DNA of 41,455 nt from a virus (Duplodnaviria; Heunggongvirae; Uroviricota; Caudoviricetes), in the IMG/VR virus record IMGVR_UViG_2585427970_000004. The stretch is one strand, 5' to 3'. Every line of letters starts with the position of its first letter. The stretch's first letter is position 1. The notes under the pieces were generated by a model. The model saw nothing but the letters and a program-made list of their open reading frames with translations, searched no databases and had not been told where the DNA came from. Made by a program: the position numbers and the translations under genes. Positions 1 through 41,455 of this stretch are shown here, in pieces.

Positions 1-774
<774 letters not shown>

Positions 775-1314
775 GTCTTTAAGTGATAAGCATAAACCGC
801 AGCACGATCTTCTTGCATACGACGTGCTACGGTTTTATTTATCTCCGACCGGAAACTTCTTATACAGTGTCGATATACCAACATCATAGATGATCGCCAC
901 CTTCTGGCGAGGAACGCCTGATGCAATTAATCGCCCGGCCTACGCCCATTGTTCTGGTGTAAGTTTGGGACGACGTCCACCAATTCGTCCCTGTGCGCGA
1001 GCAGCTTCCAGTCCAGCTTTTGTTCGTTCAACAATCAGTTCTCGTTCCATTTCAGCCAGGGCACCCATCACATGAAAGAAAAAGCGCCCCATTGGGGTAC
1101 TGGTATCAATTGAATCCGTCAGACTACGAAAGTTGATGCCTCGTTCGCGCAACTCCTCCACCAGCACGACAAGATGCCGCATACTGCGCCCCAGTCGGTC
1201 CAGTTTCCAGACAACCAGAGTGTCACCTGCCGATAATGTCCTGAGCAGTTTTTTCAGTCCCGGCCTTTCGGACTTTGTACCGCTTATCTTGTCTTCAAAA
1301 ATCAGCTCGCATCC

Positions 1315-1339
1315 TGAACCGCCCCGGGTTTCCTGGAGA
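1315..1339. repeat. IS terminal inverted repeat (left)
   Basis: tgaaccgccccgggtttcctggaga; matches the reverse complement of 2600..2624 with 2 mismatches. Confidence 0.8.
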
Positions 1340-1356
1340 GTGTTTTATCTGTGAAC

Positions 1357-2247
1357 TCAGGCTGCCAGATCATCGTTTCCGATGGAAGCATAATAAGCTT
1401 TTTCTGCTTCTGCCGGAGGAGTATGGCCCAGCCTTTCCAGCAATCGTCGATTGTTATACCAGTCCACCCACGTGAGTGTGGCCAGTTCCACTTCTGCACG
1501 GTTTTTCCAGCTCTTACGGTGTATTACCTCCGCTTTGTAAAGACCATTGATGCTCTCCGCCATCGCGTTGTCATACGAGTCGCCTGTACTTCCTGTTGAT
1601 GCCAGTAATCCGGCTTCCTTAAGCCGCTGTGTGTAGGCCAGCGATACATACTGAGAACCTTTATCACTGTGATGGACCGTGCCGGACGGTCGACGGGCCC
1701 ATAACGCCTGCTCCAGTGCATCCAGCACGAATGTCGTTTCCATGGACGATGAGACCCGCCACCCCACGATGTATCCGGCAAACACATCAATGATGAACGC
1801 CACATAGACGAAGCCCCGCCATGTGCTGACGTAAGTAAAATCAGCCACCCACAGCTGGTCAGGTCGTTCTGCCACGAACTGACGGTTTACGCGGTCGCCT
1901 GCGGCAACGGCTTTCCGGCTGATGGTCGTACGGACCTTTTTACCCCGGAGAACACCGGCAAGTCCCATAACCGCCATGAGACGTGCCACAGTGCATCTGG
2001 CCACTCTGATACCTTCCCGTAACAACTGACGCCAGACTTTACGCACACCGTATACCTTGTGATTTTCATCGTATACGCGCTGTATCTCTTTCTTCAGCCA
2101 GTCATCGCGCTGCGCACGGGCACTGCGTTTATCCGGATGATGTCGCTGTTGCTGACAGTGGTAATACGTTGACGGGGCAATATGTAGTTCACTGCATACC
2201 GGTCCGACCCCGTACAGCTTACGCAGCTTATCCAGCAGTGGCATCAC
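1357..2247 (-). CDS. IS3-family transposase OrfB (DDE integrase core), probably expressed as an OrfAB frameshift fusion
   Basis: 296-aa ORF with DDE-type core ([11 protein letters not shown]...HSDKGSQY...[15 protein letters not shown]); overlaps OrfA in the -1 frame at an AAAAAG stretch (2247..2252 on the minus strand). Confidence 0.9.
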
Positions 2248-2570
2248 TTTTTCCAGAGGCGGTCGAACTCCGCCTTCGCAAAATAAGCGGAAGCCTGGCG
2301 AAGGATATCGTTACTGCGGCGCAGTTCACGATTTTCACGTTCCAGCTCTTTCAGACGCTGACGTTCAGCGGTGGTGAGCCCTCCATCACCGCCCCCGGTA
2401 TCCCGCTCATGCTGGCGAACCCAGACACGCAGAGTCTCCGGCGTACAGCCAATCTTTGGAGCAATGGAACAAATTGTCGCCCATTGTGAGTCATATTCGC
2501 TCTGACTTTCCAGAACCATACGGACTGCCCGTTGACGGACTTCGGGGGAAAAACGAGTATTTTTAGTCAT
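2244..2570 (-). CDS. IS3-family transposase OrfA (HTH)
   Basis: 108-aa [53 protein letters not shown]...; leucine-zipper-like C-terminus; recalled as IS629/IS1203-type OrfA. Confidence 0.9.
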
Positions 2571-2599
2571 CCTGTTTACCTCTTTCTCAGGAAGTTTAG

Positions 2600-2624
2600 T
2601 CTCCAGGATTCCCGGGGCGGTTCA
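2600..2624. repeat. IS terminal inverted repeat (right)
   Basis: tctccaggattcccggggcggttca; reverse complement of the left inverted repeat. Confidence 0.8.
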
Positions 2625-2728
2625 TCCTGCACAGTTCAGCGCATTACGTTGTAGATCTGTGTTCTGGTCATTTGTTGACACACGTACATAGCCAATAAGC
2701 ATGGTAGATCTCCCTGACAAAAGCAGGA

Positions 2729-3121
2729 ATGATGCCATTTGCTCGTTATTTCTGCATTTTCATAAACGTTGGTTTGGGAGAAGCGGCTAAAAGGAATGTA
2801 GGGACAGGGGCGAATCAGATACCTGATATGGGTAGCTTCACGCTTTCTGTTTCAGGTACTGGATATCAAAAATTACCATCAGGTTTTATTCTTCAGTGGG
2901 GCTCAATCGGCGCACCAGGCATTGCACAGGATGTAGTAACCCATTTCCCGATTGCATTTCCAAACAGATGTCTGCGTGTTTTGGTCTCACAAGACTACAC
3001 ACCAGATAGCGGGGCTGTTGGTTATATTGCCTGTGCAGGTTTTAGTCCCGACCCGGTTAAATTTATATCCAGAGCCAGTACTCCTGGCCTCGGCGCTTCA
3101 TTTTTAGCGTTAGGCTGTTAA
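2729..3121 (+). CDS. Alternative tail-fibre C-terminal variable segment (silent orientation; expressible only after inversion)
   Basis: Frame is continuous through the crossover site (…INVGLGEA… versus …ENLGLGEG… in the expressed fibre); the ATG at 2729 is probably read-through, functional segment about 2784..3121. Confidence 0.5.
2758..2783. other. gix/hix-like invertase crossover site (left boundary of the invertible tail-fibre segment)
   Basis: rc = CTTCTCCCAAACCAACGTTTATGAAA; shares 19 of its first 20 positions with 4633..4658; AAACC-N-GGTTT core resembles Gin/Hin recombination sites. Confidence 0.6.
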
Positions 3122-3142
3122 TTTAGCTATATGGAGTGAAAA

Positions 3143-3583
3143 ATGAATTACATATATTCCGCGACTACAAACTCTTTCTATCCGCTGGAGATGAAAGAGG
3201 ATTACACTCAAGCTGACTCATGGCCAGATGATGCTGTTGAAGTTGATGAGCAAGTGTATATTGAGTTTTCCGGATTACCGCCGAAAGGAAAAATCCGTAT
3301 CGCTGGAGAAAATGGTTTTCCTGCATGGTCTGAAATTCCACCACCAACATATGAGGAACAGATTGCTGCAGCCGAACTGGAAAAGCAGCAACTGATTAAT
3401 CAGGCCAACGATTATATGAACAGTAAACAATGGCCTGGTAAAGCGGCTATTGGTCGTCTGAAAGGTGAGGAACTGGCGCAATATAATTTGTGGCTGGATT
3501 ATCTGGACGCACTGGAGCTGGTCGATACTTCCGGTGCGCCAGATATTGAATGGCCTACGCCTCCGGCAGTTCAGGCCAGATGA
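3143..3583 (+). CDS. Tail-fibre assembly protein, alternative copy
   Basis: 146-aa ORF directly after the alternative fibre tip; C-terminal motif (LWLDYLDALELVDTSGAPDIEWPTPP) parallels that of the opposing copy (LNAVLDYIDAVTATDTSTVPDVIWPELP). Confidence 0.6.
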   Translation: MNYIYSATTNSFYPLEMKEDYTQADSWPDDAVEVDEQVYIEFSGLPPKGKIRIAGENGFPAWSEIPPPTYEEQIAAAELEKQQLINQANDYMNSKQWPGKAAIGRLKGEELAQYNLWLDYLDALELVDTSGAPDIEWPTPPAVQAR

Positions 3584-4157
3584 CATCCGGCACGGTGCTG
3601 GTATCTGTTGCCGTCACCGCGTCAATGTAATCCAGCACAGCGTTAAGGCGGGTTGTTTCTGCCTGCGTTAGTTTACGTCCGGCCTGCAATTTCAGCTGAA
3701 TCAGACTGATGGAGGCCATTGCAGTATCAATCAGCGACTGGCGCTGTGCTTCTGCTGCATCTACTGCTGCGCCGTGCTGTGCCTCGGTATCCGTCCCCCA
3801 TTTCTCACCATCCCATTTATCGTATGGCGTTAACGGGGCGATAGTGGTTGTATTATCAGGGTAATCACCCGGAGCTGTGATTTCTTTTGATTCCCCTGTT
3901 TCGGTGCTAAAAACGATTTCACCGCGATGGTCTGGCATATATTCCCATGATTTTAAATCTGCTGAACGGCAAATTGTATAACCAGCTTTATGTGTAACTG
4001 GTGCATCTAAACAAGAACATGCCGGGATACCGACGCCAACCGCAAGATATTCAGTTGATGTGGAAATATATTCCCGCGTTTCACCATCATAGTTATAAAC
4101 GGTAATATCCCCTGCCTTTGTAGCAACAAGTCCACTATTTAATATTGCTTTATCCAT
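3555..4157 (-). CDS. Tail-fibre assembly protein (expressed orientation)
   Basis: 200-aa ORF directly downstream of the fibre gene; convergent with its alternative copy. Confidence 0.65.
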   Translation of the reverse strand: MDKAILNSGLVATKAGDITVYNYDGETREYISTSTEYLAVGVGIPACSCLDAPVTHKAGYTICRSADLKSWEYMPDHRGEIVFSTETGESKEITAPGDYPDNTTTIAPLTPYDKWDGEKWGTDTEAQHGAAVDAAEAQRQSLIDTAMASISLIQLKLQAGRKLTQAETTRLNAVLDYIDAVTATDTSTVPDVIWPELPEA

Positions 4158-4936
4158 TATGCTGCTCTCACGATATAGTTAAATGCAATGTTTCTTGGTC
4201 TGTTCTCTGAGGCAGTTGGCACTACTCTTGAAGCATCAAAATTGACTAAATGAGGATTGTTTGGGGTATTTGGAATGATTGTGGTGTTACCTATCGTATT
4301 ACGAAGTGCTGATTGACTTACAAAAACACCACTCGCTGTATTAAAGCTAATAGCCGCATTAGCTTCGGTTTGTCCATTACCAAATGTGCCGGTTATATTA
4401 CGAATAGCATCCCCCTGAGCAGACAGAATTTCGCGCCCCGCGTCAATACCGCGCCCGTCATCCCAACCACGAATAAACTCACCACGTAAATCAGGCAATT
4501 TATTTGTTGGATAAGCCTTTGCCAGTTCCGGGTATTCTTCAGCAGAAAAAACCGCACCGTTGCATTTCAGCCAGCCTGTTGGCGGAGTGGCGGAAGGCCA
4601 CGGAACAGGGACACCAACAGGTAATGCAGAGCCTTCTCCCAAACCAAGGTTTTCGAGAGCCGTTGGTACTGTGCCGTCCGATTTGATATCACCAAACGGA
4701 TTCTTGCGGCTTAACAGCAGCGCACGAAGCGCGGTAAGCAGCTGGTCGTGCCGCGCCTTCTCGAGACTGGCACCGGATGCCTCTACAACGCTGCAAAGCT
4801 CCTCCTGCAACATGTCAAAGTAGTCATCATCCAGATCGGTGGCAGGCGTGCCAGTCTGGGGGTTACCACGGGTAAAACCGTTTTTACCCGCGCCGAACTT
4901 ATCCTTCTGCGCGGTTTTCGTGTCTATACGATGCAT
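4157..4936 (-). CDS. Tail-fibre protein (constant N-terminal part plus current variable C-terminal part)
   Basis: 259-aa ORF; N-terminal region [50 protein letters not shown] typical of Mu/e14-type fibres; contains the crossover site. Confidence 0.7.
4633..4658. other. gix/hix-like invertase crossover site (right boundary, inside the tail-fibre gene)
   Basis: cttctcccaaaccaaggttttcgaga; inverted relative to 2758..2783; encodes ENLGLGEG at the constant/variable junction of the fibre. Confidence 0.6.
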
Positions 4937-4939
4937 GGA

Positions 4940-5524
4940 TTACTCCGGATATTTAAAAATTACGTAGGTATGCGACGGGCAGAGTTTGTTAAGCACGCAC
5001 TCGACAACGGTGTCCCCCCAGATACGCAGTGCGGAATCACAGGGATCGCCACATGTCATCCAGGTGGTGTTGGTGGCGGCTGGCATGTTGACCTGCCAGT
5101 AATACCGCCATTCCGGCGCATTCACTGCATCAGTACAGGCCGATGAGCAGGTGAACGTGCTTTTATCGTATCGCGTGATGGTGGCGTCTGGTCTGCCCAG
5201 GGCAGCAAGCTGTGCAAGGTAAAAATCCTCATTGATGCCGCCCGCCAGATTAACCTTCGCATCCAGCCGTTGCTGACGCTGGCGAAGGGTCTGTGTCCCT
5301 GCGGGAATACATTCATCCGGCAGGCCGCACAGACGCTCCCAGCGATTTATCAGTTCGGTGGTGGTGCGCGGATCCAGCTCCCGCATCAGGGCATCTGCAC
5401 GCTGATGAACGCGGGTTAATGACGGTGCTGCACCGGCAATCGCCGGATCGCTGGCTGACCACGCCGGACCAGGGGGCAGCAGTGCCGACAACAGACGGAT
5501 GTAATCATCGTTTGTCACGTCCAT
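4940..5524 (-). CDS. Mu gp48-like tail protein (DUF2313/YmfQ-like)
   Basis: 194 aa; position between baseplate J and the tail fibre; sequence recalled as YmfQ-like. Confidence 0.55.
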
Positions 5525-6573
5525 GAAATCGTCCCCAGAACCGCCAGTTCATTTTTCGCAATGGTGATATTGTCCGCCGGGGCAAGCAACTGATGGCTGT
5601 ATTCCCCGTTCGCACCGGAAATCGCTTCACTGATACGCGATACCTTCAGCTCTCCCTGCGGATAACCATCACGCAGCAGGAATGAACGCAACTCCGCGGT
5701 GATGGCAGCCCGTATTTCCGGTGTGTCCGGCGTCACGTGGATATGAAAATCCACTTTATGCGCCACCGGCCTGAACACATACAAATCAGAGCCTGCCACC
5801 GGGGCCAGTGGCCCGATATGTTGCCTTGCCGCCGTTTCCGTTGATTCTTCCGGAATGGGATTAATCAGGTCACTGCTGGCAATCATCACACCGACAGTTC
5901 CCGTTCCCATCCAGTGACGGTATGTCCATGCGCGGGTAATGCCGGGCACTTCTTTAGCCCAGACGACATAGTCCCCGTCAGCCCCGCCCTGCGGCGTCCA
6001 GTAATACCGCTCAATGACGCGGGCGCGCCACGTTTCCAGATCTTCAGTATCGAATCCGCCAGTCAGGGTATCTGCCACACCGGAAGACGGCAGACCATTC
6101 ACCGGCGTGACCAGGATTAATGCCATACCGTCGTCAGCGTTACCGACCGCGCCTGCAGTTGAGCAGGCGATCGGCACGCGCAGGACACCACCGGAGCTGG
6201 TTGCATCAGAAGTTGCCGTGTACTGAACCAGGTCATCGCGCTGAATAACACTCCCGGCGGTCACCTTCAGGCCATCGCTGACACCTTCCCAGCGCATATA
6301 CCCGCTGGCAGACGTGGCCCCCTTGCGCGGACACCGTTTCATCGCAGCATGTCGCGCCAGCCAGGACACATCGCACAGGTCAGGCAGCATGTTCATTGCC
6401 AGATAATCGATGTAACCGTAAACCGTATGCAGCGCCGCCGCATACACCTTTGCCCGCACGTCTTCATCCATGCGCCGGAGCGTGTCGCTGACGTCCAGCC
6501 TGGCGAATAAATCGTTACGGAGCATACTGATATTTTCTGCCAGCGTCGGGCGCTGAAATTCACTGTCCGCCAT
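5515..6573 (-). CDS. Baseplate J-like protein (Mu gp47-like)
   Basis: 352 aa; conserved position in the Mu-like baseplate gene order. Confidence 0.65.
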
Positions 6574-6988
6574 GCGTTATCGCACTCCACAGATCATCAA
6601 AAGAAATCATTACCGGTCCGTCACGACGCCAGAGAGTGATACTATTACCCAGTTCATTAATCCCGGTGCGGCGGATATCCAGATCAATACGGGACACCAC
6701 GCCGTCATCAATCATCCATTGCAGGCATTCGCGGATATACCCCCTTACCGTCTGCACCAGCTGATTGGTCAGTTTGCTGCGCTGAAGCAGCCACAGTCGG
6801 GAGCCGTAACGGTCATTCTGTACCGCAGGCCAGGTATCCCCCCACCATCCCATCGGGACGCCGGCGTTGTCATCAGGCTCCGCCCGCCGCCAGGTAAACA
6901 GGGAAATCACCACGGCGCGGGTCAGCGGATCCAGCGGTGCGCTGGCGCAGGTGCGTTTACCGTTCACCGTCAGCCACAGTTCCATCAT
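6560..6988 (-). CDS. Mu gp46-like baseplate protein
   Basis: 142 aa; ATG at 6988; synteny. Confidence 0.5.
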   Translation of the reverse strand: MMELWLTVNGKRTCASAPLDPLTRAVVISLFTWRRAEPDDNAGVPMGWWGDTWPAVQNDRYGSRLWLLQRSKLTNQLVQTVRGYIRECLQWMIDDGVVSRIDLDIRRTGINELGNSITLWRRDGPVMISFDDLWSAITHGGQ

Positions 6989-7533
6989 GCCTCCATCGCT
7001 TTATCAGGTTTGTCGGTGTTACTGCCCTGACCGTTCTCTCTGTGACGATGCCCGTTATAGGCAAGCCGCATCGCTGACATGGTGGTGCCGCTGGAGTCGC
7101 ACAGGTCTTTCACCTGTCCTGTCACTTCTAGGTCCATTTCAAAACGTGCTTTAGGTGAATTGCGAAACGTGATCGTTTTACCTGCACCGTCCACCACGAT
7201 CCCCTCCCGGGTCAGCGTCACGGACTGCCCCTGATCGTCATAGACCGCCACCTCACCCGTCTGCAGCCCTTTCAGGCGGTAGCGCCGGTCCGACACCGTA
7301 ACAACCACCGCATGAGAACGGTCGCCATCCGGAAACAACACCACCGCTTCCGCACCGCTGTTTGCCCTTGCGGTAAAACCGTAGGGTTCAAGATGTTCAA
7401 CCCCGGCTTTGGGTTCACCGGCAATCAGGGACACATCCACGGTCTGACATTTCGTGGCGGCACTGATGCTTTTCACCACTGCCCGCCCAATCAGGCCGAG
7501 GAGTTGTCGCTGCATGGCTTCAATCGTCCTCAT
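6985..7533 (-). CDS. Baseplate assembly/spike protein (gpV-like, Mu gp45-like)
   Basis: 182 aa; synteny. Confidence 0.5.
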   Translation of the reverse strand: MRTIEAMQRQLLGLIGRAVVKSISAATKCQTVDVSLIAGEPKAGVEHLEPYGFTARANSGAEAVVLFPDGDRSHAVVVTVSDRRYRLKGLQTGEVAVYDDQGQSVTLTREGIVVDGAGKTITFRNSPKARFEMDLEVTGQVKDLCDSSGTTMSAMRLAYNGHRHRENGQGSNTDKPDKAMEA

Positions 7534-8612
7534 CAGAACGGGTCCTCCTGTACTCTGGCTTTTTTCTTTTTCCGCGCGCCGGGATCTTCGGGTTCAGGCA
7601 GATAAGCATCAGGCGGGCCGACACGGATTTCCGTCAGGGTGCCGTTCTGGTCCTGAGTAAACGTGACTTCCGAAACAAGCAGTTCGGTATTGTCGAAACC
7701 ACAGACCGGATCAAAGACAATCACCCGCTGGTTGGGCTGCCACAGCGTACCGTTACCCTGTCGCCAGCCCTGCACCACATAGGTGGTTTCATCCGTCCGC
7801 GCCGCCCGTTGCCGGGCTTCAAAGTCAGCACGCGCAATACAGCCTGCCCCCGTAGCCTGCCCTGTCTGCCTGATATACATCGGACGGTAACGGGCAATAA
7901 ATGCGTCCTCTGTGCGGGCCCGCAGCGCGGTGGTGGTGGCCTCACCGAAATCATCGTCGTTTCCGGCACGCTGCCCCGCCACCTGGTAAACAGAAAACCG
8001 CTCCCGGATACTCTTCTCCGTATCGCAGGAAAGGATGTTTTCCCCGAGTACCAGCGCGGTATGTGCCCGCGTTGAGCCAATACCGCCAATCACCAGCCTG
8101 CCGTGCGGGTCGTCGTAAGCCAGTGCCTGCTGCTGACCGAGTATTTTGTTGATTACCTCAATCACCGTTTCACCGTGATCAGGCTGAACATCAGGAATAA
8201 CACCCGACGGCGCACCGCTGTTCACCACCTCAATGCCGAAAGGCGCAGCAAGCGCCTGCGCAATCTGTACCAGCGATCGTCCGTTAAACTGTGTCGGTTC
8301 GGCTGCACAGTCAATCAGGTCAGCGGTCAGACTGCGTCCGGCAATACCGGTGCTGACCGAACGGGCATCGTAACGAACGGGAGTCGCCTCCACCCAGCCG
8401 GTGATCACCAGCTCATCACCAATCAGCACTTCCACTTTTGAACCGTTTTTAATGCGCGGCTGAAGCGTGGTGATACCCTCATCTCCCGGCCACTGGCGAG
8501 TGATCTCCACACTGAAATCCCGCGCCAGCCGTTCAATACCGGCACCGATGCGCACCGATGTCCAGCCATTCCACTCCCGGCCATTTACCCGTAGCGTGAC
8601 ATTGTCGTTCAT
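7533..8612 (-). CDS. Tail protein (Mu P / P2 gpD-like)
   Basis: 359 aa; synteny downstream of the DNA-circulation-like protein. Confidence 0.5.
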   Translation of the reverse strand: MNDNVTLRVNGREWNGWTSVRIGAGIERLARDFSVEITRQWPGDEGITTLQPRIKNGSKVEVLIGDELVITGWVEATPVRYDARSVSTGIAGRSLTADLIDCAAEPTQFNGRSLVQIAQALAAPFGIEVVNSGAPSGVIPDVQPDHGETVIEVINKILGQQQALAYDDPHGRLVIGGIGSTRAHTALVLGENILSCDTEKSIRERFSVYQVAGQRAGNDDDFGEATTTALRARTEDAFIARYRPMYIRQTGQATGAGCIARADFEARQRAARTDETTYVVQGWRQGNGTLWQPNQRVIVFDPVCGFDNTELLVSEVTFTQDQNGTLTEIRVGPPDAYLPEPEDPGARKKKKARVQEDPF

Positions 8613-9937
8613 TGCACTGGCACCTTCAGAGGGATCACCGGCACAAAGCCGGGATGCGTAATGGCATTACGCCGGATAATGTCCGCGTCACGCGCCGCGT
8701 TATCAAACCAGGTCGCCGCCAGCACCAGCGCGGGTAAAACCTCATCCGGTGTGCGCTGAATGATCCGTGCAGACTGTTCAAGGCGCGTGTTGATATCCGC
8801 ATTCAGATCTGCTTTCACCCGGCGCAGCGCCAGAAACAGCGCATCACTGGTTGTACGGGACAACTCCTTATCAATTGCCGTATTCAGTGTGTCGCGAATG
8901 TCAGTCAGTTCTTCCCACGTCGGCAGGTCAACCGTGTTTTTCACCGCCGGTACATTGTTTAGTGCCGGATGCGTGACGGAAGGCCAGCCAGTGCTCTGCG
9001 CGGGTGTTGTTGCCTGCCCCACTGCGGAATTCTGCATCACCGCGGAAATTGTTGGCGCAGGCAATCGGGTGACGGTATACGCCGCTTCGCTGATTGCGGT
9101 CGTACGAAGGGTGCTGGCAACCACGTTACGCTGCTGCGTCGCCGTGGCGGTGGTTTTACTGTCCGTTTTCCAGACGCCGCGCGGTTGCAGATCGCTGCCG
9201 AGGCTGACACCGGAAAGCGTTTTGATCATGGTGACCAGGTCGCTGGCGTTACCATAAAGGCGTTTCCCGGTACGCCACATTTTCTGCACCTGCTCAACGA
9301 AATTTTTGCCTGACGATGGCGGCGGCAGAAGTACCGAGATATCCCCCTGCAACAGCCTGGCGGCATCCGATACGGCAGAATCCACCACTTTCATCGCATC
9401 AGAAACATACCCCAGCATCATGCTGGCATTACCGATAACGTCGTTCTGCACGAAATCCGCCACACCATCGATACTGAAACCGCTGAAGCTGTCACTGATG
9501 CAGTCATCCAGTGCAGAACAGGATGACATCAGCGTCTGCGCCGTCGCCGCACCTGATGTGGGGTAAGAGAGTTCTCCCGCTTCGACAAACTTCAGGTCAA
9601 AGCGGACAATACGCCCTTCACTCTTCGATGTGCTGACCCGAACCTCTCCGTCAACACAGACTTTCAGCTCACCGTAAGTCGGATGGACAAGCGTGCCGGG
9701 ACCGGGTTTATTCAGCGCGTCAATCAGACGATCGCGCTGGTCAAAGCAGTCATCTCCCACCACATAAGCCGTGATGGACGGGCGGAAAGTGATTTTCCCC
9801 AGGTCTTCAGTATAGGGTTTGTCGCGGTTCGGGTATTCGTGCGTTTCCACACGACGACCGGTTCCCGCACTTTCTTCTTCAACCTTAAACGGCACACCGC
9901 GAAATGACGCGTCCTGAAGTCTGTCTTTCCACGTCAT
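8609..9937 (-). CDS. Mu N-like (DNA circulation N-terminal domain) tail protein
   Basis: Likely start at ATG 9937 (MTWKDRLQDASFRGVPFKVEEES…) with GGAG RBS rather than the ORF-track start at 9979; synteny after the tape measure gene. Confidence 0.55.
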   Translation of the reverse strand: MTWKDRLQDASFRGVPFKVEEESAGTGRRVETHEYPNRDKPYTEDLGKITFRPSITAYVVGDDCFDQRDRLIDALNKPGPGTLVHPTYGELKVCVDGEVRVSTSKSEGRIVRFDLKFVEAGELSYPTSGAATAQTLMSSCSALDDCISDSFSGFSIDGVADFVQNDVIGNASMMLGYVSDAMKVVDSAVSDAARLLQGDISVLLPPPSSGKNFVEQVQKMWRTGKRLYGNASDLVTMIKTLSGVSLGSDLQPRGVWKTDSKTTATATQQRNVVASTLRTTAISEAAYTVTRLPAPTISAVMQNSAVGQATTPAQSTGWPSVTHPALNNVPAVKNTVDLPTWEELTDIRDTLNTAIDKELSRTTSDALFLALRRVKADLNADINTRLEQSARIIQRTPDEVLPALVLAATWFDNAARDADIIRRNAITHPGFVPVIPLKVPVQ

Positions 9938-9950
9938 ATAAACTCCGTAC

Positions 9951-9974
9951 ATAAAAAATCCCACCGGAGTGGGA
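9951..9974 (-). terminator. Hairpin plus T-tract between the tape measure and N-like genes (possible partial terminator)
   Basis: Minus strand TCCCAC-TCCG-GTGGGA followed by TTTTTTAT. Confidence 0.3.
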
Positions 9975-9997
9975 CTCATTAACAGATTAATTTTTCA

Positions 9998-11833
9998 TTA
10001 CCTGCCAAAGCGCGTATAGCCAACATCATGGCTGACATCAAAACCGCTGGATCGCGTTTCCATAACCCGCATACCCGGAGGCGAATTCACAAAAGAGACC
10101 TTGATCTCACCATCAACTTTTGGCGCAGTAGCTTTATTAATCATGAAGGGATTCGGGCCTGTGGCATCGGAGGCGTTGTTTGACTGAGCCAGATCTACCG
10201 CCGGATAAGGTGTGTATCCCCGTGCCGGTATTCCCGTCCCATAAGCATCATAAGCACCCGCGCCCCACTGCGCAGAGTTAATGGCATCGACCGTGTCTCC
10301 GGAACTGTCGGTAAACCACTCAATAATTGGCTTCAGCTTGTCCCACATATCCTGAAACCACTTAACAACCGGCCCCCAGTTATTGATCACCATCCCCAGC
10401 GGCGACCAGGCAAAAACTTTCTTAAGGAGTTCCCAGCCAGCCTCAAAATAAGGACCAATGGTTTCCCAGAGCTTCTTGAAATAAGGTCCGACAACATCCC
10501 AGTTAGTGATAATTAATCCCGCAGCCAGGGCTATCGCCGTCGCAATCATGCCAATCGGCGTCATCGACATGATCCTGCTGATAATGCTGATGGCACTGCC
10601 CACGCCCATCAATCCCAGTTTCAGAATCGCAAGACCGGCAGCAAGCCCGACGACGCCGCGAATAACCCGGGGATTTTCATCCGCAAACTTCGTGAATTTT
10701 TCCCCCAACTCCCCCAGCCATTGCGTGATATTTTTAGCGTCACCAGAAAATGCGCCGCCAATAGCTGCAAGACCGTTAGTTGCGGTCCCCGTCATTGCCT
10801 CCCACAGGTTGGACAGCGTACCAAGCTGTGCCTGAACACGTTTATTCAGGCTGGCCTGTTTATGCATCTTCTGCTGGATCTGATCGTAACCATCCTTTCC
10901 TTTATCGATCAGAGCATTGACCACCTGAAGGGTTTCGGCATCATCACCAAATATTGCCTTAAGTACACCGGTTCGCTTAACGTCGGTCAGTTTTCGCAGC
11001 TTTGCCAGTTGCCTGAACATGTTATCAAGACCGCCAAAACTCCCTTTGCCATCAGTAAAATCGAGCTGTACCCCGAGTTTCTGGCGGGCCATGATTTTAT
11101 TGACGTCCCTGATTTTCTTAACGCTTAATCCGGACTGGATAACTTTTCGCAGGGCATTACCTGCCGACTCCCCGTTCATCCCCATCTGATCCATCATGAC
11201 ACTGATGGGGGCAAGACTCTGTGCAGCCTGAAGACCGTCCTTATTCACCATCTTCAGAACAGAGCTGGTTTTAGTGAAGAATGACAGCATGTTGGTGTCG
11301 TCAACGCCCAGATAAAACGCCTTCTGAATTGTGTCGAACAGCCCCATCATGTCTTCTGAGGCCGTTCCGGTAGCATCCTGCATCTTTGCGGCAAACTCGG
11401 CAGCCGCTTCCGGTGTTTTTTTCAGTTGTACCGCAAGATAAGCTGTCGCTTTACCCACACCACCAAGAATGTTTTCTGCCGGGATCCCCTGACGCACCAG
11501 CATCTGCATCATGTTCTGGAAATCAGCCGTTGTACCGGGTAGCTGGTTACCCAGGCCAATAGCCAGTTTATTGATGTCCTGAAAGCTCTTTCCAACCTCG
11601 CCGTTCGCATCCATCATGGCGACTTTCAGCCCGGTGGCGGCGTTTTCCTGATCAGCATAAGATTTCAGGGAAAGCGTCAGACCCGCAGCCAGTCCGCCAC
11701 CAAGCGCCAGCCCACCCTGTGACGCTTCTTCCGCCTGGCGTTTAAATCCCCGGATTTTCTTTTGCATTTTCGACAGCGCGGGAGAAAGCCTGTCGACACC
11801 GGTGATCAACGCCTTAAGCTCAAATTCAGCCAT
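9998..11833 (-). CDS. Tail tape measure protein
   Basis: 611 aa; Ala/Gly-rich with predicted helical segments; position between tail chaperone and baseplate genes. Confidence 0.8.
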   Translation of the reverse strand: MAEFELKALITGVDRLSPALSKMQKKIRGFKRQAEEASQGGLALGGGLAAGLTLSLKSYADQENAATGLKVAMMDANGEVGKSFQDINKLAIGLGNQLPGTTADFQNMMQMLVRQGIPAENILGGVGKATAYLAVQLKKTPEAAAEFAAKMQDATGTASEDMMGLFDTIQKAFYLGVDDTNMLSFFTKTSSVLKMVNKDGLQAAQSLAPISVMMDQMGMNGESAGNALRKVIQSGLSVKKIRDVNKIMARQKLGVQLDFTDGKGSFGGLDNMFRQLAKLRKLTDVKRTGVLKAIFGDDAETLQVVNALIDKGKDGYDQIQQKMHKQASLNKRVQAQLGTLSNLWEAMTGTATNGLAAIGGAFSGDAKNITQWLGELGEKFTKFADENPRVIRGVVGLAAGLAILKLGLMGVGSAISIISRIMSMTPIGMIATAIALAAGLIITNWDVVGPYFKKLWETIGPYFEAGWELLKKVFAWSPLGMVINNWGPVVKWFQDMWDKLKPIIEWFTDSSGDTVDAINSAQWGAGAYDAYGTGIPARGYTPYPAVDLAQSNNASDATGPNPFMINKATAPKVDGEIKVSFVNSPPGMRVMETRSSGFDVSHDVGYTRFGR

Positions 11834-27134: not shown

Positions 27135-27770
27135 TTACGGCACAAATGAATCTATAGCATCAAGCAACTCATTCACATTCGTATAACACCCAAGAAGAAA
27201 TGGTCTATTAGAATGAGGAGGAGCTGCATTTAAACTTTGTTTATTTAGTGCCTTCGCTCTTTGTCTGGCATAAGGAATACCAAGTCTAATTTTCTTATAC
27301 AACGTAGCATCGGCTTTATTATAATCCTTTATACCCACTGATAGTAAATCTTTTTTCAAAGTAGAGTTTTTCTTTAGATCATCAAAACTTGAGTAAGGTG
27401 TATTCTTAAATGCAAAGTGTTGTAAAATCCACAATTCAAAACAAACATTTGACAACGCAATATTAATATTGTTTGCATGGGCTAAATCCCATGCTTCATG
27501 GTGTAATGTGTGTGGGTATTTTGTGACAGCCTCTCTATCATATACAACCCAAAATTCATCATCATCCGATGTATCACCACTTTCCTTGTGTTTAATTGCA
27601 GCCTTTACTAAGGCTATTGGTGTGTTATATTTTATATCAGGGATATGTATAACTTTTGCTTTCTCACTAGCAAATTCATCGATATAACCCTGCAAGTACA
27701 TAGGTTCTGTTTTAGACCCTTCGCAAAAAATATGCATTCGTTTCTCTAATTTTCTCACGTTTTTTGCCAT
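27135..27770 (-). CDS. RloB-like (Toprim-like) protein, AbiLii-like
   Basis: 211 aa; N-terminal HIFCEGSKTEP and acidic FWVVYDRE motifs consistent with RloB/Toprim; AAGGTGA RBS; starts 6 nt after the ATPase stop; AT-rich. Confidence 0.65.
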   Translation of the reverse strand: MAKNVRKLEKRMHIFCEGSKTEPMYLQGYIDEFASEKAKVIHIPDIKYNTPIALVKAAIKHKESGDTSDDDEFWVVYDREAVTKYPHTLHHEAWDLAHANNINIALSNVCFELWILQHFAFKNTPYSSFDDLKKNSTLKKDLLSVGIKDYNKADATLYKKIRLGIPYARQRAKALNKQSLNAAPPHSNRPFLLGCYTNVNELLDAIDSFVP

Positions 27771-27776
27771 GATCTA

Positions 27777-29117
27777 TCACCTTAAATCTTCTGGAATATC
27801 ATCGATGTTACCAAATACTGTTAAATCAGTATCTTCAGGTTCACCACCTGTTACCCCAATGATAAAATCCTTTATTTTCATATAGTTAATTGATGGGACG
27901 CCACCAAAACGCCCTTCATCATACCACTTGTTAAAAGGTGAATTAGCCTTAACCTTTTCTTTATCAAACTCATCTAAACTATAAACTTCGGTTACACCTT
28001 TTTTCTTTTCAGTAAACCAAATCTGATCTCTTCTCATATTTTCTGATTTCATCAGCTCAATGTTATGAGTTGTAAATATGAGCTGAGAGCCTACTTTATT
28101 AACCTCACTATCGTTAAACAGTCTGATTAAAAGTGCAGCCAAATGTGGATGCATGCTGTGGTCTATTTCATCGATAATTAACACTCGATTTATTAAAAGA
28201 CCAGAAATTAGGGCAGGTGTTAATTCAAATAACCTACGGGTTCCTGCTGACTCATTTTCAATATCTATATCAGCACATTCTCCACCCTCCATGTCATGCT
28301 CAAATTTAAAGCTAAATCGATTTTCAGCCAAAATTCTTCGTTTCATATCTTCCGGCATTTCATCAGGTAGCTTAATATCTAGTTCTTTATTTTCGACAAT
28401 CCTTAGTTGGTTTATACCCGTATCAACCAATGATAAGAAGTTACCGGAAAAACGAATAAGCATGTCTCTAAATTTCTCATCCTCAAGATGAAGAGCATTA
28501 AAACTTGATTCCATTCCAATAGGACAAATTAACTGCGAAAAGTACTCATATACTTCCTTAGCAATCTCTGGAGCCTCAGCGACAGTGCCGATCTTTGATA
28601 GATAAGAGTTATTTTTAGAAAATGGAATTTTCTTTACTCCACCTTTGAATTGCGCCCCAAATTTAATATTCTCCCAACCATTATTCACACGATAGAACAA
28701 ATTCGATGGCTGCTTGGAGTAATAACAATCTAAACTCTCCAATATAATTTCTTTTTGAAGATAATGTATTTTATATTTAAATTTCAAATCATTGATCACA
28801 AAGTCAATTTCAAACTTTACTGGCTTTGAGATTGTTTTTTGACAAAGAGAATATGGTTCATAACAAGGGATATCCTCGCCATCTTTCAACGAAAAGCTAT
28901 CCTCAACAAGATAATTTAATGCAGAAAACACCTTTAGAAGGTTTGACTTCCCTGAAGCATTAGGACCATAAATTCCAACGGTACGTACAACCCGCTCATT
29001 GCTTTTGGGAAGAACAAGCAAATTATCGCTTAAGTGGTTACTTGTTGAACTACGCAGATCAAAGTTAACCTCTTCTTTGATCGACCTAAAATTCTCAACT
29101 TTTAAGGAAATTATCAT
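27777..29117 (-). CDS. ABC/AAA_21-type ATPase, AbiLi-like
   Basis: 446 aa; Walker A GPNASGKS (about aa 51-58), Walker B LIIDEID (about aa 313-319), TTHN H-loop-like motif; long helical insert between them as in OLD/AbiL-type ATPases; AT-rich. Confidence 0.7.
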   Translation of the reverse strand: MIISLKVENFRSIKEEVNFDLRSSTSNHLSDNLLVLPKSNERVVRTVGIYGPNASGKSNLLKVFSALNYLVEDSFSLKDGEDIPCYEPYSLCQKTISKPVKFEIDFVINDLKFKYKIHYLQKEIILESLDCYYSKQPSNLFYRVNNGWENIKFGAQFKGGVKKIPFSKNNSYLSKIGTVAEAPEIAKEVYEYFSQLICPIGMESSFNALHLEDEKFRDMLIRFSGNFLSLVDTGINQLRIVENKELDIKLPDEMPEDMKRRILAENRFSFKFEHDMEGGECADIDIENESAGTRRLFELTPALISGLLINRVLIIDEIDHSMHPHLAALLIRLFNDSEVNKVGSQLIFTTHNIELMKSENMRRDQIWFTEKKKGVTEVYSLDEFDKEKVKANSPFNKWYDEGRFGGVPSINYMKIKDFIIGVTGGEPEDTDLTVFGNIDDIPEDLR

Positions 29118-31674: not shown

Positions 31675-32220
31675 TCATATCGCCCCCAGCATGGTAGTAA
31701 CCATCGCCATCAATGGACCAGCCAGATCCGGGTCCACACGAAACATCGACACAATACCTTCACTAATTTCCTTCAGTTTCTGGTGGCGTGGTGCGTTGAG
31801 AATGACCGCCTGCTTTGCCTCACAGAGTTCCTTTTCCATTTCAGCCAGCCGAGCCATGAAGCTATCCTGCTCAACCAGGTGGCCGCGATATTCCAGCGGT
31901 AGTACCGCCAGAATTGCCGGGGTCAGTTCACGCACGTTATTTCGGTATTTTTCAGAATCGAATTTGTTATCGAGGAAGCGGAACAGCTTCTGGCGTGCAC
32001 GGCTGACATCATCAGGGAAATCGATGGTGCCGCCGCCCTGCTCCCGATACTCATTCACAATGAGTGCGGCAACAACATCCTGATTATCTGCAGCCGACCA
32101 GGCGCGAACGGCATCACGGATTTTTTCGTGGCCTGGCGCCTGTTTTGTTTGAGAACGATTTATCACCGCCGTCGGGCTAAATCCGCTAGTCTGTTGGTAT
32201 GTAAGTGATTGCATAGTCAT
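31675..32220 (-). CDS. CII-position regulatory protein (YdaT-like)
   Basis: 181 aa; between cro-like and O; stop overlaps the track-predicted O start; family guess by position and weak recall. Confidence 0.4.
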   Translation of the reverse strand: MTMQSLTYQQTSGFSPTAVINRSQTKQAPGHEKIRDAVRAWSAADNQDVVAALIVNEYREQGGGTIDFPDDVSRARQKLFRFLDNKFDSEKYRNNVRELTPAILAVLPLEYRGHLVEQDSFMARLAEMEKELCEAKQAVILNAPRHQKLKEISEGIVSMFRVDPDLAGPLMAMVTTMLGAI

Positions 32221-38635: not shown

Positions 38636-38957
38636 GGCCTGTCAGTTTCTTAAGATATCCAGACCAACCGCCACCAACTGGATACGAACAGGCCGCCTAC
38701 AGGCAACACGTAAAGATCCAACCAAGCCAAAATCTCCTTACCTCACAACACGGCAAGCCTGCATTGCGGCGCTTCAGTCTCCGCTGCATACTGTCCAGGT
38801 GAGCGCGGGTGATGGCATAACAGAGGAAAGAAAATGTCACTCTTCCGCAGAAGTGAAATATGGTACGCCAGTTTCACATTGCCGAACGGTAAAAGATTTA
38901 AACAGTCTCTTGGAACAAAGGACAAAAGGCAGGCGACAGAGCTCCATGACAAGCTAA
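38607..38957 (+). CDS. Excisionase-like HTH protein
   Basis: ATG 38607 with GAGGT RBS; [34 protein letters not shown]; immediately upstream of and overlapping int. Confidence 0.5.
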
Positions 38958-39997
38958 AGGCTGAAGCATGGCGGGTCAGCAAACTTGGTGAAATACCTGA
39001 TATAACGTTCGAGGAAGCGTGTGTCAGGTGGCTTGAAGAGAAAGCACATAAAAAATCACTGGACGATGACAAAAGCCGGATCGGATTCTGGCTTCAACAT
39101 TTCGCAGGAATGCAACTAAGAGACATTACTGAATCAAAAATTTATTCAGCAATGCAGAAAATGACGAACCGGCGTCATGAGGAAAACTGGAGACTCAGGG
39201 CAGAAGCATGCAGAAAAAAAGGGAAACCTGTTCCAGAATACACGCCAAAACCAGCGTCCGTTGCAACGAAGGCTACGCATCTTTCATTTATAAAGGCCCT
39301 ACTAAGAGCCGCAGAGCGTGAATGGAAAATGCTGGATAAGGCACCAATTATTAAAGTGCCTCAACCAAAGAATAAACGGATCCGCTGGCTGGAGCCCCAT
39401 GAAGCACAAAGGCTGATTGATGAATGTCCGGAGCCATTAAAGTCTGTTGTTGAATTTGCACTGGCAACAGGCTTAAGACGCTCGAACATCATCAACCTTG
39501 AATGGCAACAAATAGACATGCAGCGCCGGGTGGCATGGATAAACCCGGAAGAGAGTAAATCAAACCGCGCAATTGGCGTTGCGCTGAATGATACTGCATG
39601 TCGCGTTTTGAAAAAACAAATCGGGAATCATCACCGTTGGGTATTTGTGTACAAGGAAAGCTGTACCAAACCAGACGGAACGAAAGCGCCAACAGTAAGG
39701 AAGATGCGGTATGACGCAAACACAGCCTGGAAAGCGGCGCTGAGACGGGCTGGTATTGATGATTTCAGATTTCACGACTTGAGACACACCTGGGCAAGTT
39801 GGCTGGTTCAAGCCGGAGTCCCGTTGTCAGTGTTACAGGAAATGGGAGGCTGGGAGTCTATCGAAATGGTTCGTCGATATGCTCACCTTGCACCTAATCA
39901 CCTTACCGAACACGCACGGCAAATAGACTCGATCCTGAACCCATCGGTCCCAAATTCGTCCCAGTCAAAAAATAAGGAAGGTACTAATGATGTGTAA
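38834..39997 (+). CDS. int: Tyrosine integrase (tRNA-Thr site-specific, IntF-like)
   Basis: 387 aa; C-terminal catalytic motifs (…[42 protein letters not shown]…); ends 15 nt before the tRNA 3' end. Confidence 0.9.
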
Positions 39998-40011
39998 CTT
40001 ATTGATTTAAA

Positions 40012-40087
40012 TGGTGCCGATAATAGGAGTCGAACCTACGACCTTCGCATTACGAATGCGCTGCTCTACCAACTGAGCTATATCGGC
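40012..40087 (-). tRNA. thrW: tRNA-Thr (anticodon CGU), thrW-like; prophage integration target
   Basis: rc = GCCGATATAGCTCAGTTGGTAGAGCAGCGCATTCGTAATGCGAAGGTCGTAGGTTCGACTCCTATTATCGGCACCA; cloverleaf with anticodon loop TTCGTAA, TPsiC-loop TTCGACT, 3' CCA. Confidence 0.9.
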
Positions 40088-40201
40088 CCTGAAAGGACAT
40101 GTTCACGAACGTGAATCACGGTGGACAAGGTTAAAACTAACCGGGCGATGCGTCAATGGCCTTGTGAATCAAATGGCTACTTTTGCATCACCCGGTTTTA
40201 T

Positions 40202-41455
40202 TTACGCACGAATGGTGTAATCACCAATGCCGATCCACTTGTAAGTGGTCAGTGCTTCCAGCCCCATTGGGCCACGCGCGTGGAGTTTTTGTGTGCTTAC
40301 CGCCACTTCCGCACCCAGACCAAACTGGCCGCCGTCGGTAAAACGCGTAGAGGCGTTAACGTAAACAGCGGACGAATCCACTTCGTTAACAAAACGCTGG
40401 GCGTTGCGCATATCGCGGGTCAGGATCGCATCGGAGTGTTGTGTGCCGTGTTCACGAATATGGGCGATGGCATCGTCAAGATCGCTGACGATTTTGACGT
40501 TCAAATCTAATGACAGAAACTCATCGTCATACTCTTCGGCTTTAACAGCAACCACCTTCGCAGGGCCTGCCTGCAACTGCGCCAGTGCAGCTGCATCTGC
40601 GTGTAATGTCACGCCGCTTTCCGCCATTTGTTTGCTTAATGCGGGCAGGAAGCTATCGGCGATGTTTTTATTCACCAGCAACGTTTCAACCGTATTACAT
40701 GTGCTCGGACGCTGAGTTTTCGCGTTGACGATCACTTTTAATGCTTCAGCGATCTCTACACTTTCATCAACGTAAATATGGCATACGCCTATACCACCTG
40801 TGATCACCGGGATTGTCGACTGTTCACGGCACAGTTTATGCAAACCAGCGCCACCACGCGGGATCAGCATGTCGATGTATTTATCCATACGCAGCATTTC
40901 ACTGACCAGCGCACGGTCAGGATTATCAATCGCCTGCACGGCACCCGCCGGTAAGCCGCAGGATTTCAGGGCGTCCTGAATCACCGCCACCGTTGCAGCG
41001 TTAGTGCGACACGTTTCTTTGCCACCGCGCAGGATCACCGCATTACCGGTTTTCAGGCACAGCGAAGCGACATCAACCGTCACGTTCGGGCGCGCTTCAT
41101 AAATCACGCCAATAACCCCCAGCGGTACGCGACGACGCTCAAGACGCAGGCCGCTGTCCAGTACGCCGCCATCGATTACCTGCCCCACCGGATCGGCGAG
41201 GTTGCACACCTGACGTACATCGTCGGCAATGCCTTTCAGCCGTGCGGGCGTCAGTGCCAGACGGTCAAGCATCGCTTCGCTAAGGCCATTGGCTCGCGCG
41301 TCAGCAACATCCTGGGCGTTAGCGTTGAGGATGATTTCGCTTTGTGCTTCCAGTTCATCGGCGATTTTTTCCAGCACGCGATTTTTTTCGCGGCTGGAGA
41401 GTTGCGCTAATTTATACGAGGCTTGCTTCGCGGCAATGCCCATTTGTTCCAGCAT
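40202..41455 (-). CDS. proA: Gamma-glutamyl phosphate reductase ProA (host gene)
   Basis: 417 aa; [66 protein letters not shown]…; start coincides with the window end. Confidence 0.95.

Follow-up and report, generated by a model that had tools for sequence, protein, structure and literature searches.

The window analysed here, 41,455 nucleotides of viral DNA, contains a pin-type DNA invertase gene that is a recent pseudogene within a well-known tail-fibre switch of the PinE/Gin/Cin/Hin type. Two lesions in its coding sequence and a predicted third in its enhancer would disable the switch, and the invertible segment is most likely frozen in its present orientation and poorly rescued by the invertases of other prophages. 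An IS629/IS1203-type insertion between codons 26 and 27 cuts the catalytic Ser9 off the remaining protein, and a CAG-to-TAG change at codon 150 deletes the helix-turn-helix DNA-binding domain. Falling at the dyad centre of a predicted distal Fis-binding site, the insertion would also disable the recombinational enhancer. In the frozen orientation, the fibre tip expressed would be that of Collar type, along with the TfaE-like chaperone.

The interrupted invertase gene

The invertase gene and the insertion sequence (IS) comprise the following features.

2702..835, minus strand: whole span of the pin-type gene, a PinE/Gin/Cin-type serine invertase
2625..2702, minus strand: invertase 5' fragment, codons 1-26 (MLIGYVRVSTNDQNTDLQRNALNCAG), catalytic Ser9 included
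835..1311, minus strand: invertase 3' fragment, codons 27-184 plus the TAA stop at 837..835
940..942, minus strand: amber TAG at codon 150 (CAG to TAG), at the start of HTH_7, corresponding to Hin Gln151
1315..2624, minus strand, same transcription direction as pin: IS3-family insertion sequence of the IS629/IS1203 type, 1310 bp
2244..2570, minus strand: IS orfA, HTH_Tnp_1 domain
1357..2247, minus strand: IS orfB, HTH_21 and rve domains
1312..1314, second copy at 2625-2627: 3-bp target-site duplication TCC, read on the minus strand as GGA, the codon for Gly26

The invertase gene starts with an ATG at 2702..2700 on the minus strand, and codon 26 is followed by a TGA donated by the IS terminus, where translation ends. 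When the IS and one copy of the target repeat were taken out, a frame of 555 nt was reconstructed, with 184 codons and the TAA stop, and its sole defect is the TAG at codon 150 (942..940). The reconstructed protein contains a Pfam Resolvase domain (residues 3-135, E 1.5e-51), with Ser9 lying within GYVRVST, as expected from the YxRVST catalytic serine motif of the Hin, Gin, Cin and Pin invertases, and an HTH_7 domain (residues 138-180, E 4.8e-13). In the real DNA, the Resolvase domain is split after residue 26, and translation of the HTH_7 DNA-binding domain typical of invertases is blocked by the TAG. On these sequence grounds, the gene is a member of the Hin/Gin/Cin/Pin family by descent, yet a pseudogene.

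The reconstructed protein is closely related to characterized invertases. Compared with PinE of the cryptic K-12 prophage e14, residues 1-128 are identical and 7 of the 184 positions differ, the amber counted. Residues 1-181 align without gaps to the Mu Gin structures 3uj3/4m6f (E about 1e-94). Except for the amber (Q150*), the protein is identical to the intact Pin in CP088890.1, with 14 nt differences between the genes, 12 of them synonymous. This near-identity, together with an amber private to the window's allele, suggests that the invertase was inactivated recently.

The IS has TG...CA ends and 25-nt terminal inverted repeats, which are imperfect (92% complementary). An A-rich slippery site marks the overlap of orfA and orfB, which are joined by a -1 frameshift, and the rve domain of orfB is a DDE domain. 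These features, with the 3-bp duplication and a length of ~1.3 kb, place it in the IS629/IS1203 group of the IS3 family, with which it shares the common length of 1310 bp, the termini, the 25-nt repeats, the 3-bp duplication and the orfA/orfB design. It is named here to group level, and is 96% identical to the two annotated IS1203-family copies compared; its relatives are annotated as 'IS3-like element IS1203 family transposase, programmed frameshift'. The insertion point lies after gene nt 78. An 81-nt query across the pin::IS junction found no equivalent among 5,426 complete E. coli genomes, and the two best whole-region matches have an intact pinE and IS copies at other places.

Codon 150 encodes Gln in K-12 PinE, Mu Gin (including structures 3uj3/4m6f) and P1 Cin, and also, as CAG or CAA, in six other E. 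coli/Shigella alleles. A single C-to-T substitution accounts for the amber; the best genome matches depart from the window by one base, position 942, which is A here and G in them. By alignment offset, Pin Q150 is equivalent to Hin Q151, which is among the residues placed beside the beta-hairpin arm of Fis (PMC3798978). With the TAG at its midpoint, a 72-nt query had 0 exact matches in the 5,426 complete E. coli genomes, and a 32-nt query had no match in IMG/VR or JGI metagenomes. An amber allele lacking the IS, sought in order to place the two events in sequence, was not found in the E. coli genomes, IMG/VR or JGI metagenomes. Across these collections, the allele appears to be confined to one lineage. 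Given the amber, even precise loss of the IS would not restore invertase activity.

The original prediction had described a Pin/Gin-type invertase split after codon 26 by an IS and, independently, a TAG in place of the family Gln. The complete IS with its TCC duplication and the alignments confirm both statements. The two lesions are independent, and either one alone would inactivate the enzyme: the IS separates the 26-aa peptide carrying Ser9 from the rest, and the amber removes HTH_7. The further claim that no functional invertase is available in cis also holds, as no second invertase was found within the 41-kb window.

The invertible segment and its prophage

The substrate of the switch consists of the following features.

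2757..2782, minus strand: invertase-proximal recombination (pix) site, 26 bp, TTCTCCCAAACC AA CGTTTATGAAAA, identical to the K-12 e14 site
4634..4659, plus strand: second recombination site, 26 bp, TTCTCCCAAACC AA GGTTTTCGAGAG, located within the tail-fibre gene, with the same sequence as in K-12 e14
2770..4646: P-like invertible segment of about 1.88 kb, with two fibre tips and two chaperone genes
4157..4936, minus strand: tail-fibre gene as now assembled, 259 aa, with a 101-aa constant part and a Collar-domain tip
3555..4157, minus strand: tail-fibre assembly chaperone of the expressed tip, TfaE-like, 200 aa
3143..3583, plus strand: chaperone of the alternative tip, 146 aa
2729..3121, plus strand: alternative fibre tip with a gp53-like C domain, now a 130-aa ORF fused to a short StfE-type leader

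The two sites are inverted relative to each other and share the central dinucleotide AA. The constant 5' part of the fibre gene lies outside the segment, and the two tips with their cognate chaperones are opposed inside it, the arrangement of tail-fibre switches of the Mu G, P1 C and e14 P type. The tips belong to the Collar and Gp53-like_C domain families, and the two chaperones to Caudo_TAP. A simulated inversion produced a 213-aa in-frame fibre with the same first 101 residues, and the fibre is in frame in either orientation. Neither tip and neither chaperone is truncated or out of frame. The current 259-aa fibre shares 75.6% identity with K-12 StfP2, and the window orientation corresponds to the K-12 "inverted" (StfP2/StfE2) state.

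The locus follows the gene order of the e14 P segment: constant fibre part, tip, chaperone, inverted chaperone, inverted tip and invertase. The pix sites are identical in the two systems. Relative to e14, the prophage here is full length, its invertase is IS-split and carries Q150*, the gp53-like tip is represented by a divergent allele, and the segment has the 'inverted' orientation. The neighbour of the locus is PD-T4-3, whereas that in e14 is mcrA. The logic of alternative tail-fibre tips is also that of Mu and P1, but the invertases and enhancers that serve the G and C segments of those phages are undamaged, and the cix site of P1 is at the 3' end of cin. The Salmonella Hin system flips a promoter rather than fibre tips.

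The surrounding prophage combines a lambdoid early region with an HK97-like head and a Mu-like tail, and is integrated at tRNA-Thr by a proA-like gene. Integration at icd, as in e14, was considered and rejected, since the flank is an aldehyde-dehydrogenase-family (proA-like) gene and a tRNA-Thr lies beside the integrase. Measured against a comparator prophage, every head, tail and packaging gene has its full length, and the structural genes show 92-100% identity. The lysis, Q, O, P, cI, recombination and integrase genes are all present, and the prophage appears otherwise complete. It also encodes other defence genes, PD-T4-3 and an AbiL-like gene.

The recombinational enhancer

Invertases of the Hin/Gin class require an enhancer in cis, composed of two correctly phased sites bound by Fis. 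This element lies in the first ~90 nt of the invertase gene; the homologous 5' ends of gin and cin hold it, the annotation of the P1 record puts the Cin enhancer at cin nt 19-90, and pin, gin and cin align without gaps over the stretch. The Hin enhancer is a 65-bp element with one Fis site at each end, 47 bp from centre to centre, and AT-rich ATTTA/TAATG segments between them (PMC3798978). In the window, the predicted Fis cores are as follows.

2666..2680, minus strand: predicted proximal Fis core, intact, gene nt 23-37, TGTCAACAAATGACC
2625..2632, minus strand: predicted distal Fis core, left half and centre, gene nt 71-78, GTGCAGGA, abutting the IS end
1305..1311, minus strand: predicted distal Fis core, right half, gene nt 79-85, TGCGAGC, 1.3 kb from the left half

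These sites were assigned in the window's pin allele by homology, consensus match and synonymous-site constraint, and the enhancer was placed from the P1 annotation, the geometry in PMC3798978 and our own synonymous-site analysis. The cores are 15 bp each with 48 bp between their centres, and the centre of the proximal core is ~97 bp from that of the pix site. This geometry resembles that of Salmonella Hin, with two Fis cores 48 bp apart, ~100 bp to the nearest recombination site and AT-rich sequence between the cores; in the window, the distal core is interrupted. A proximal core at nt 22-36 was rejected for its 49-bp spacing and poor consensus match, while the register nt 23-37 matches the consensus at 7/7 positions with 48-bp spacing.

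The synonymous-site analysis covered 80 distinct invertase genes and 44 conserved fourfold-degenerate codon families. The lowest third-position entropies were found at codons 9, 10, 26 and 25 (0.19-0.40 bits; median about 1.7), whose third positions are positions -3 and 0 of the two Fis cores. Conservation at the Fis sites is confounded by coding constraint, and a PWM score of the hybrid site was therefore dropped.

The IS cut, after nt 78, falls at the dyad centre of the predicted distal core (nt 71-85), a position overlooked in the original prediction. The native form of this core, GTGCAGGATGCGAGC, is replaced by a hybrid with the IS end, GTGCAGGATGAACCG. In Fis recognition, Arg85 contacts a G/C at +/-7, a Y-R step is needed at +/-(3-4), and a G at +/-8 is inhibitory (PMC4784862). 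In the hybrid, formed by the pix-side half and the IS end, the +7 C and one Y-R step are lost and a G is placed at position 8. It retains 10/15 core positions at the correct spacing, including the -7 G, the -4/-3 Y-R step and the centre. Fis is highly abundant in growing cells, so some enhancer activity may remain. Both predicted cores, 48 bp apart, are present in the ancestral sequence, and in the window the distal one is cut; we infer that enhancer function is lost in cis.

Orientation of the switch and rescue in trans

Because this class of invertase needs a phased two-site Fis enhancer in cis and the distal site is cut, the segment is most likely frozen, and foreign invertases would be poor rescuers. 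We infer that inversion is absent, with a consequence for host range. The original prediction that the host-range switch is probably locked was sensible, supported by an enzyme that is doubly broken and a switch substrate that is otherwise intact. It had also allowed for rescue in trans by another prophage. That route is legitimate in principle, since in K-12 PinQ and PinR, which come from other prophages, invert the e14 P segment (PMC12529663), but it is less likely than had been assumed, as the IS bisects the distal Fis site.

Trans rescue is also the core of a first alternative, in which the local gene no longer works, yet a Pin-family invertase encoded elsewhere in the host, either PinQ/PinR-like or from a Mu-, P1- or e14-like prophage, keeps inverting the segment at a useful rate. 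We consider this unlikely. The pix sites are intact and the same as those of e14. According to PMC12529663, the e14 P segment is a substrate for PinQ, PinR and PinE, the Hin segment for Fin, and the Mu G and Salmonella H segments for PinE. Enhancers are able to act over kilobases, and Fis-independent invertase variants exist in the laboratory (PMC3798978). However, the local enhancer has its predicted distal Fis site cut in two, inversion proceeds at <0.001 inversions per molecule per minute without Fis, and no second invertase is present in the 41-kb window. In K-12, a pinE deletion, which removed the enhancer too, left the P segment locked even with pinQ and pinR on the chromosome (Kirigo et al., NAR 2025, PMC12529663), in agreement with enhancer loss limiting rescue in trans. 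That deletion was engineered and locked the non-inverted state, whereas the window carries a natural IS plus nonsense allele in the inverted-type state. An invertase supplied in trans would probably work poorly on this locus.

A second alternative, which seems improbable, holds that the lock is adaptive rather than neutral decay, with the StfP2/StfE2-type orientation keeping the leader plus gp53-like ORF (2729..3121) permanently assembled as what would be, by analogy with K-12 StfE2, a constitutive blocker of phage adsorption. The orientation is indeed the K-12 'inverted' state, the 130-aa ORF combines an StfE leader with a gp53-like C domain, K-12 StfE2 blocks T2 adsorption (PMC12529663), and the other defence genes, PD-T4-3 and the AbiL-like gene, are on the same prophage. 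The gp53-like tip, however, is only about 34% identical to StfE2, the inverted state costs fitness in K-12, a second inactivating hit after the first is the pattern expected from neutral decay, and the allele is limited to one lineage. There is little chance that the switch, dead in cis and in trans through loss of its enhancer to the IS, would have been fixed for lysogen protection as a natural 'locked-ON' form of the recombinase-activated defence described in 2025. The locus is otherwise ordinary prophage decay in a single lineage.

It is very improbable that errors of sequencing or assembly produced either lesion, or both, and that the gene is intact in the organism: short-read assemblies are often confused by IS elements and the amber rests on one base, but the 3-bp target duplication is clean, the IS ends are complete, and the independent public assembly GCA_000714975.1 is identical to window positions 1..10936 and carries both lesions on a 4.74-Mb contig. 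The 5' pin::IS junction recurs in GCA_000599805.2 and in IMG/VR UViG 2636416110_000004, which may be the same assembly as both contigs start at window position 2379.

With the invertase inactivated and the segment most likely frozen, the prophage should be annotated as carrying a fixed tail-fibre type, and its host range should be predicted from the Collar-type tip alone. Because the invertase gene also houses the Fis enhancer, damage to its 5' end by insertion or deletion can abolish the cis element along with the enzyme. For invertase switches in general, rescue in trans by the enzyme of another prophage is not to be taken for granted, and enhancer loss may also bear on the published lock of the K-12 pinE deletion despite pinQ and pinR.

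The prophage and the neighbours of pin

The window is essentially one prophage. The head, packaging and tail genes are all full length and share 92-100% identity with those in the comparator prophage record ON470584. A holin, an ORF in the endolysin position, Rz and Q represent the late and lysis genes. The early genes include lambda P-type and O-type replication genes, a NinB-like gene, RusA, an S24-type repressor, RecT with a YqaJ exonuclease, and a tyrosine integrase. The 41,455-nt window has no other invertase gene. ON470584.1 ('Escherichia phage vB_EcoM-689R6') is itself a prophage region flanked by host genes (icd, mnmA, hflD and others) rather than a packaged genome; the invertible segment is apparently missing from it, since the record places the fibre gene directly beside mcrA and pin. 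The attachment end is marked by the following features.

38834-39997: tyrosine integrase
40012..40087, minus strand: tRNA-Thr(CGT)
within 38834-41455: aldehyde-dehydrogenase-family (proA-like) gene, 417 aa

Since the integrase adjoins tRNA-Thr(CGT) and the proA-like gene, icd was ruled out as the integration site, and the e14-like tail module sits in a tRNA-Thr-site prophage.

The gene convergent with pin (1-774, plus strand) is a full-length match to the PD-T4-3 anti-phage defence protein (PADLOC E 2e-140; Pfam LEM-3-like GIY-YIG). In the K-12 e14 prophage the same position, next to pinE, is occupied by mcrA, suggesting that this site serves as a slot for defence cargo. The identical 257-aa PD-T4-3 protein is present in thousands of assemblies, with at least two kinds of neighbours among the loci compared: pin with a fibre switch, or acyltransferase-3 with a different fibre module. 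This suggests that PD-T4-3 travels between the tail ends of prophages as a cassette. Between the PD-T4-3 gene and pin lies an imperfect hairpin with a 13-bp stem (794-834; AAACCGCAGCACG ... CGTGCTACGGTTT) and T-rich flanks, likely a bidirectional terminator. A candidate second defence system is located between the NinB-like gene and the lambda P-type replication gene (27135-29117, minus strand), consisting of a 446-aa AbiLi-like ATPase (PADLOC AbiLi E 2e-83; Pfam AAA_21) and a 211-aa AbiLii/RloB-like protein.

IS insertion and amber codon in pin

The serine invertase gene pin, on the minus strand, begins with ATG at 2702 and runs for 26 codons (MLIGYVRVSTNDQNTDLQRNALNCAG) up to 2625. The next triplet, TGA, comes from the terminus of an insertion.

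1315..2624: IS, IS629/IS1203-type, 1310 bp, TG...CA ends
2244..2570: orfA of the IS, HTH_Tnp_1
1357..2247: orfB of the IS, overlapping orfA, HTH_21 and rve

The terminal inverted repeats are 25 nt long and 92% complementary, and the element is 96% identical to copies labelled 'IS3-like element IS1203 family transposase, programmed frameshift'. It is flanked by a 3-bp direct repeat, TCC (1312-1314 and 2625-2627), corresponding to the Gly26 codon GGA. The split after codon 26 in the original prediction was thus correct, including its coordinates. An identical junction occurs in three public records (GCA_000714975.1, GCA_000599805.2 and IMG/VR UViG 2636416110_000004), which argues against an assembly artefact. 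The contigs of the latter two, which both start at window position 2379, possibly come from a single assembly. The junction was not found in any complete E. coli genome searched.

Removing the IS and one repeat copy gave a 555-nt frame. Its product matches K-12 PinE without difference over residues 1-128 and contains Resolvase (residues 3-135) and HTH_7 (residues 138-180) Pfam domains. The sole internal defect is a TAG at 942..940, codon 150. As had been predicted, the family has Gln here: gapless alignments place Gln at this position in K-12 PinE (CAA), Mu Gin, P1 Cin, the Gin crystal-structure sequences 3uj3 and 4m6f, and six further E. coli/Shigella alleles. The Hin DNA-binding-domain chain aligns to Pin with an offset of one residue, so Pin Q150 corresponds to Hin Q151, which is placed beside the Fis beta-hairpin arm in the invertasome (McLean et al., PMC3798978).

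None of 5,426 complete E. coli genomes exactly matched a 72-nt query centred on the amber codon; the best matches differ only at window position 942 (A in the window, G elsewhere). A TAG-containing 32-nt pattern was not found in IMG/VR or JGI metagenome contigs. At the protein level, Pin equals the intact Pin of CP088890.1 except for Q150*, and the 14 nucleotide differences comprise 12 synonymous changes, the amber and a change of stop-codon type. The gene has otherwise not drifted, so its inactivation, which is certain, is recent.

The predicted Fis enhancer within pin

Hin-class invertases require a Fis-bound enhancer in cis. The Hin enhancer spans 65 bp, with one Fis site per end (47 bp centre to centre) and AT-rich ATTTA and TAATG segments between them, and its distance to the nearest recombination site is about 100 bp; without Fis, the rate stays under 0.001 inversions per molecule per minute (PMC3798978). 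The Cin enhancer is annotated in the P1 genome record at 31678..31749, nt 19-90 of the cin coding sequence, where the alignment of pin, gin and cin contains no gaps. The classical degenerate Fis consensus, reportedly that of Hubner and Arber in 1989, is (G/T)NNYRNNWNNYRNN(C/A). Two 15-bp cores in pin match it at all specified positions.

pin nt 23-37, centre nt 30: predicted proximal Fis core, TGTCAACAAATGACC
pin nt 71-85, centre nt 78: predicted distal Fis core, GTGCAGGATGCGAGC

The core centres are 48 bp apart, and their midpoint has ATCTA on one side and TAATG on the other, which correspond to the AT-rich segments of Hin. About 97 bp separate the proximal centre from that of the nearest recombination site. 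Conservation was evaluated in 80 distinct invertase genes from Enterobacterales plus Mu, P1 and K-12 (63-98% protein identity), using third-position entropy at 44 conserved fourfold-degenerate codon families within codons 2-135. The lowest values (0.19-0.40 bits against a median of about 1.7) belong to codons 9, 10, 26 and 25, that is nt 27, 30, 78 and 75, positions -3 and 0 of both cores; the remaining, fifth fourfold codon inside the cores has the 7th-lowest value. For both cores, each of the seven consensus positions is kept by 75 or more of the 80 genes when A and T at the centre are treated alike.

The IS is inserted between pin nt 78 and 79, hence at the centre of the predicted distal core, a lesion that the original prediction overlooked. 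The hybrid site on the recombination-site side, GTGCAGGA|TGAACCG followed by C, still has the centre, the -7 G and the Y-R step at -4/-3. The +7 C that Arg85 contacts is gone, as is the Y-R step at +3/+4, and the opposite strand now carries a G at position 8. The ±7 contact with Arg85, the Y-R step and the position-8 G all matter for Fis binding (Hancock et al., PMC4784862). On the far side (1305-1319, minus-strand reading), the IS right end and the duplicated GGA restore 14 of the 15 core positions (GTTCAGGATGCGAGC versus GTGCAGGATGCGAGC). For this copy the required fixed phasing is lost, because its partner core is 1.3 kb away. Judged from these sites, enhancer function is probably substantially reduced; some activity may remain, since Fis is abundant and one half-site survives with the right spacing. 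The target site resembles the IS terminus, which may be coincidence or an IS3-family preference for end-like targets.

The fibre switch and its present state

The remaining components of the invertible tail-fibre segment are as follows.

2757-2782, minus strand: invertase-proximal pix (recombination) site, TTCTCCCAAACC AA CGTTTATGAAAA
4634-4659, plus strand: second pix site, TTCTCCCAAACC AA GGTTTTCGAGAG
4157..4936: fibre gene crossing the second pix site, 259 aa (101-aa constant part plus Collar-domain tip)
3555..4157: TfaE-like chaperone after the fibre gene, 200 aa
3143..3583: chaperone for the gp53-like tip, 146 aa
2729..3121, plus strand: ORF with a StfE leader fused to a gp53-like C domain, 130 aa

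The two 26-bp pix sites share AA as their central dinucleotide and match the K-12 e14 sites at every base. Simulated inversion yields an in-frame 213-aa fibre with the gp53-like tip, and the switch components other than pin and the enhancer are intact. The window orientation equals the K-12 'inverted' state, and the fibre is 75.6% identical to K-12 StfP2.

The segment is probably locked in its present orientation. The original caveat that invertases of other prophages could act in trans is legitimate: the e14 P segment is inverted by PinQ (Qin) and PinR (Rac), the Hin segment is acted on by Fin, and the Mu and Salmonella segments by PinE (Kirigo et al., NAR 2025, PMC12529663). Residual flipping through such foreign invertases is nevertheless unlikely, as in the K-12 pinE mutant the segment keeps a single orientation despite the presence of pinQ and pinR (PMC12529663). 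Kirigo et al. make no mention of Fis or an enhancer; in our reading, the pinE deletion also removes the enhancer, which agrees with a need for the enhancer in cis but does not prove it. In the locked orientation, ORF 2729-3121 would stay assembled permanently. It shares the layout of K-12 StfE2, an adsorption blocker (Kirigo et al. 2025, PMC12529663), but an adaptive lock that constitutively assembles such a blocker is very improbable, given an overall identity of only ~34%.

The phage looks complete, so a lock on fibre choice could influence which hosts its released particles can infect; in Mu, the hosts of G(+) particles differ from those of G(-) particles. The Pin/P segment system, the IS and decay of this kind are all well known already. 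The one point worth keeping is that a 5'-end insertion in such invertase genes would take out the cis enhancer along with the enzyme.
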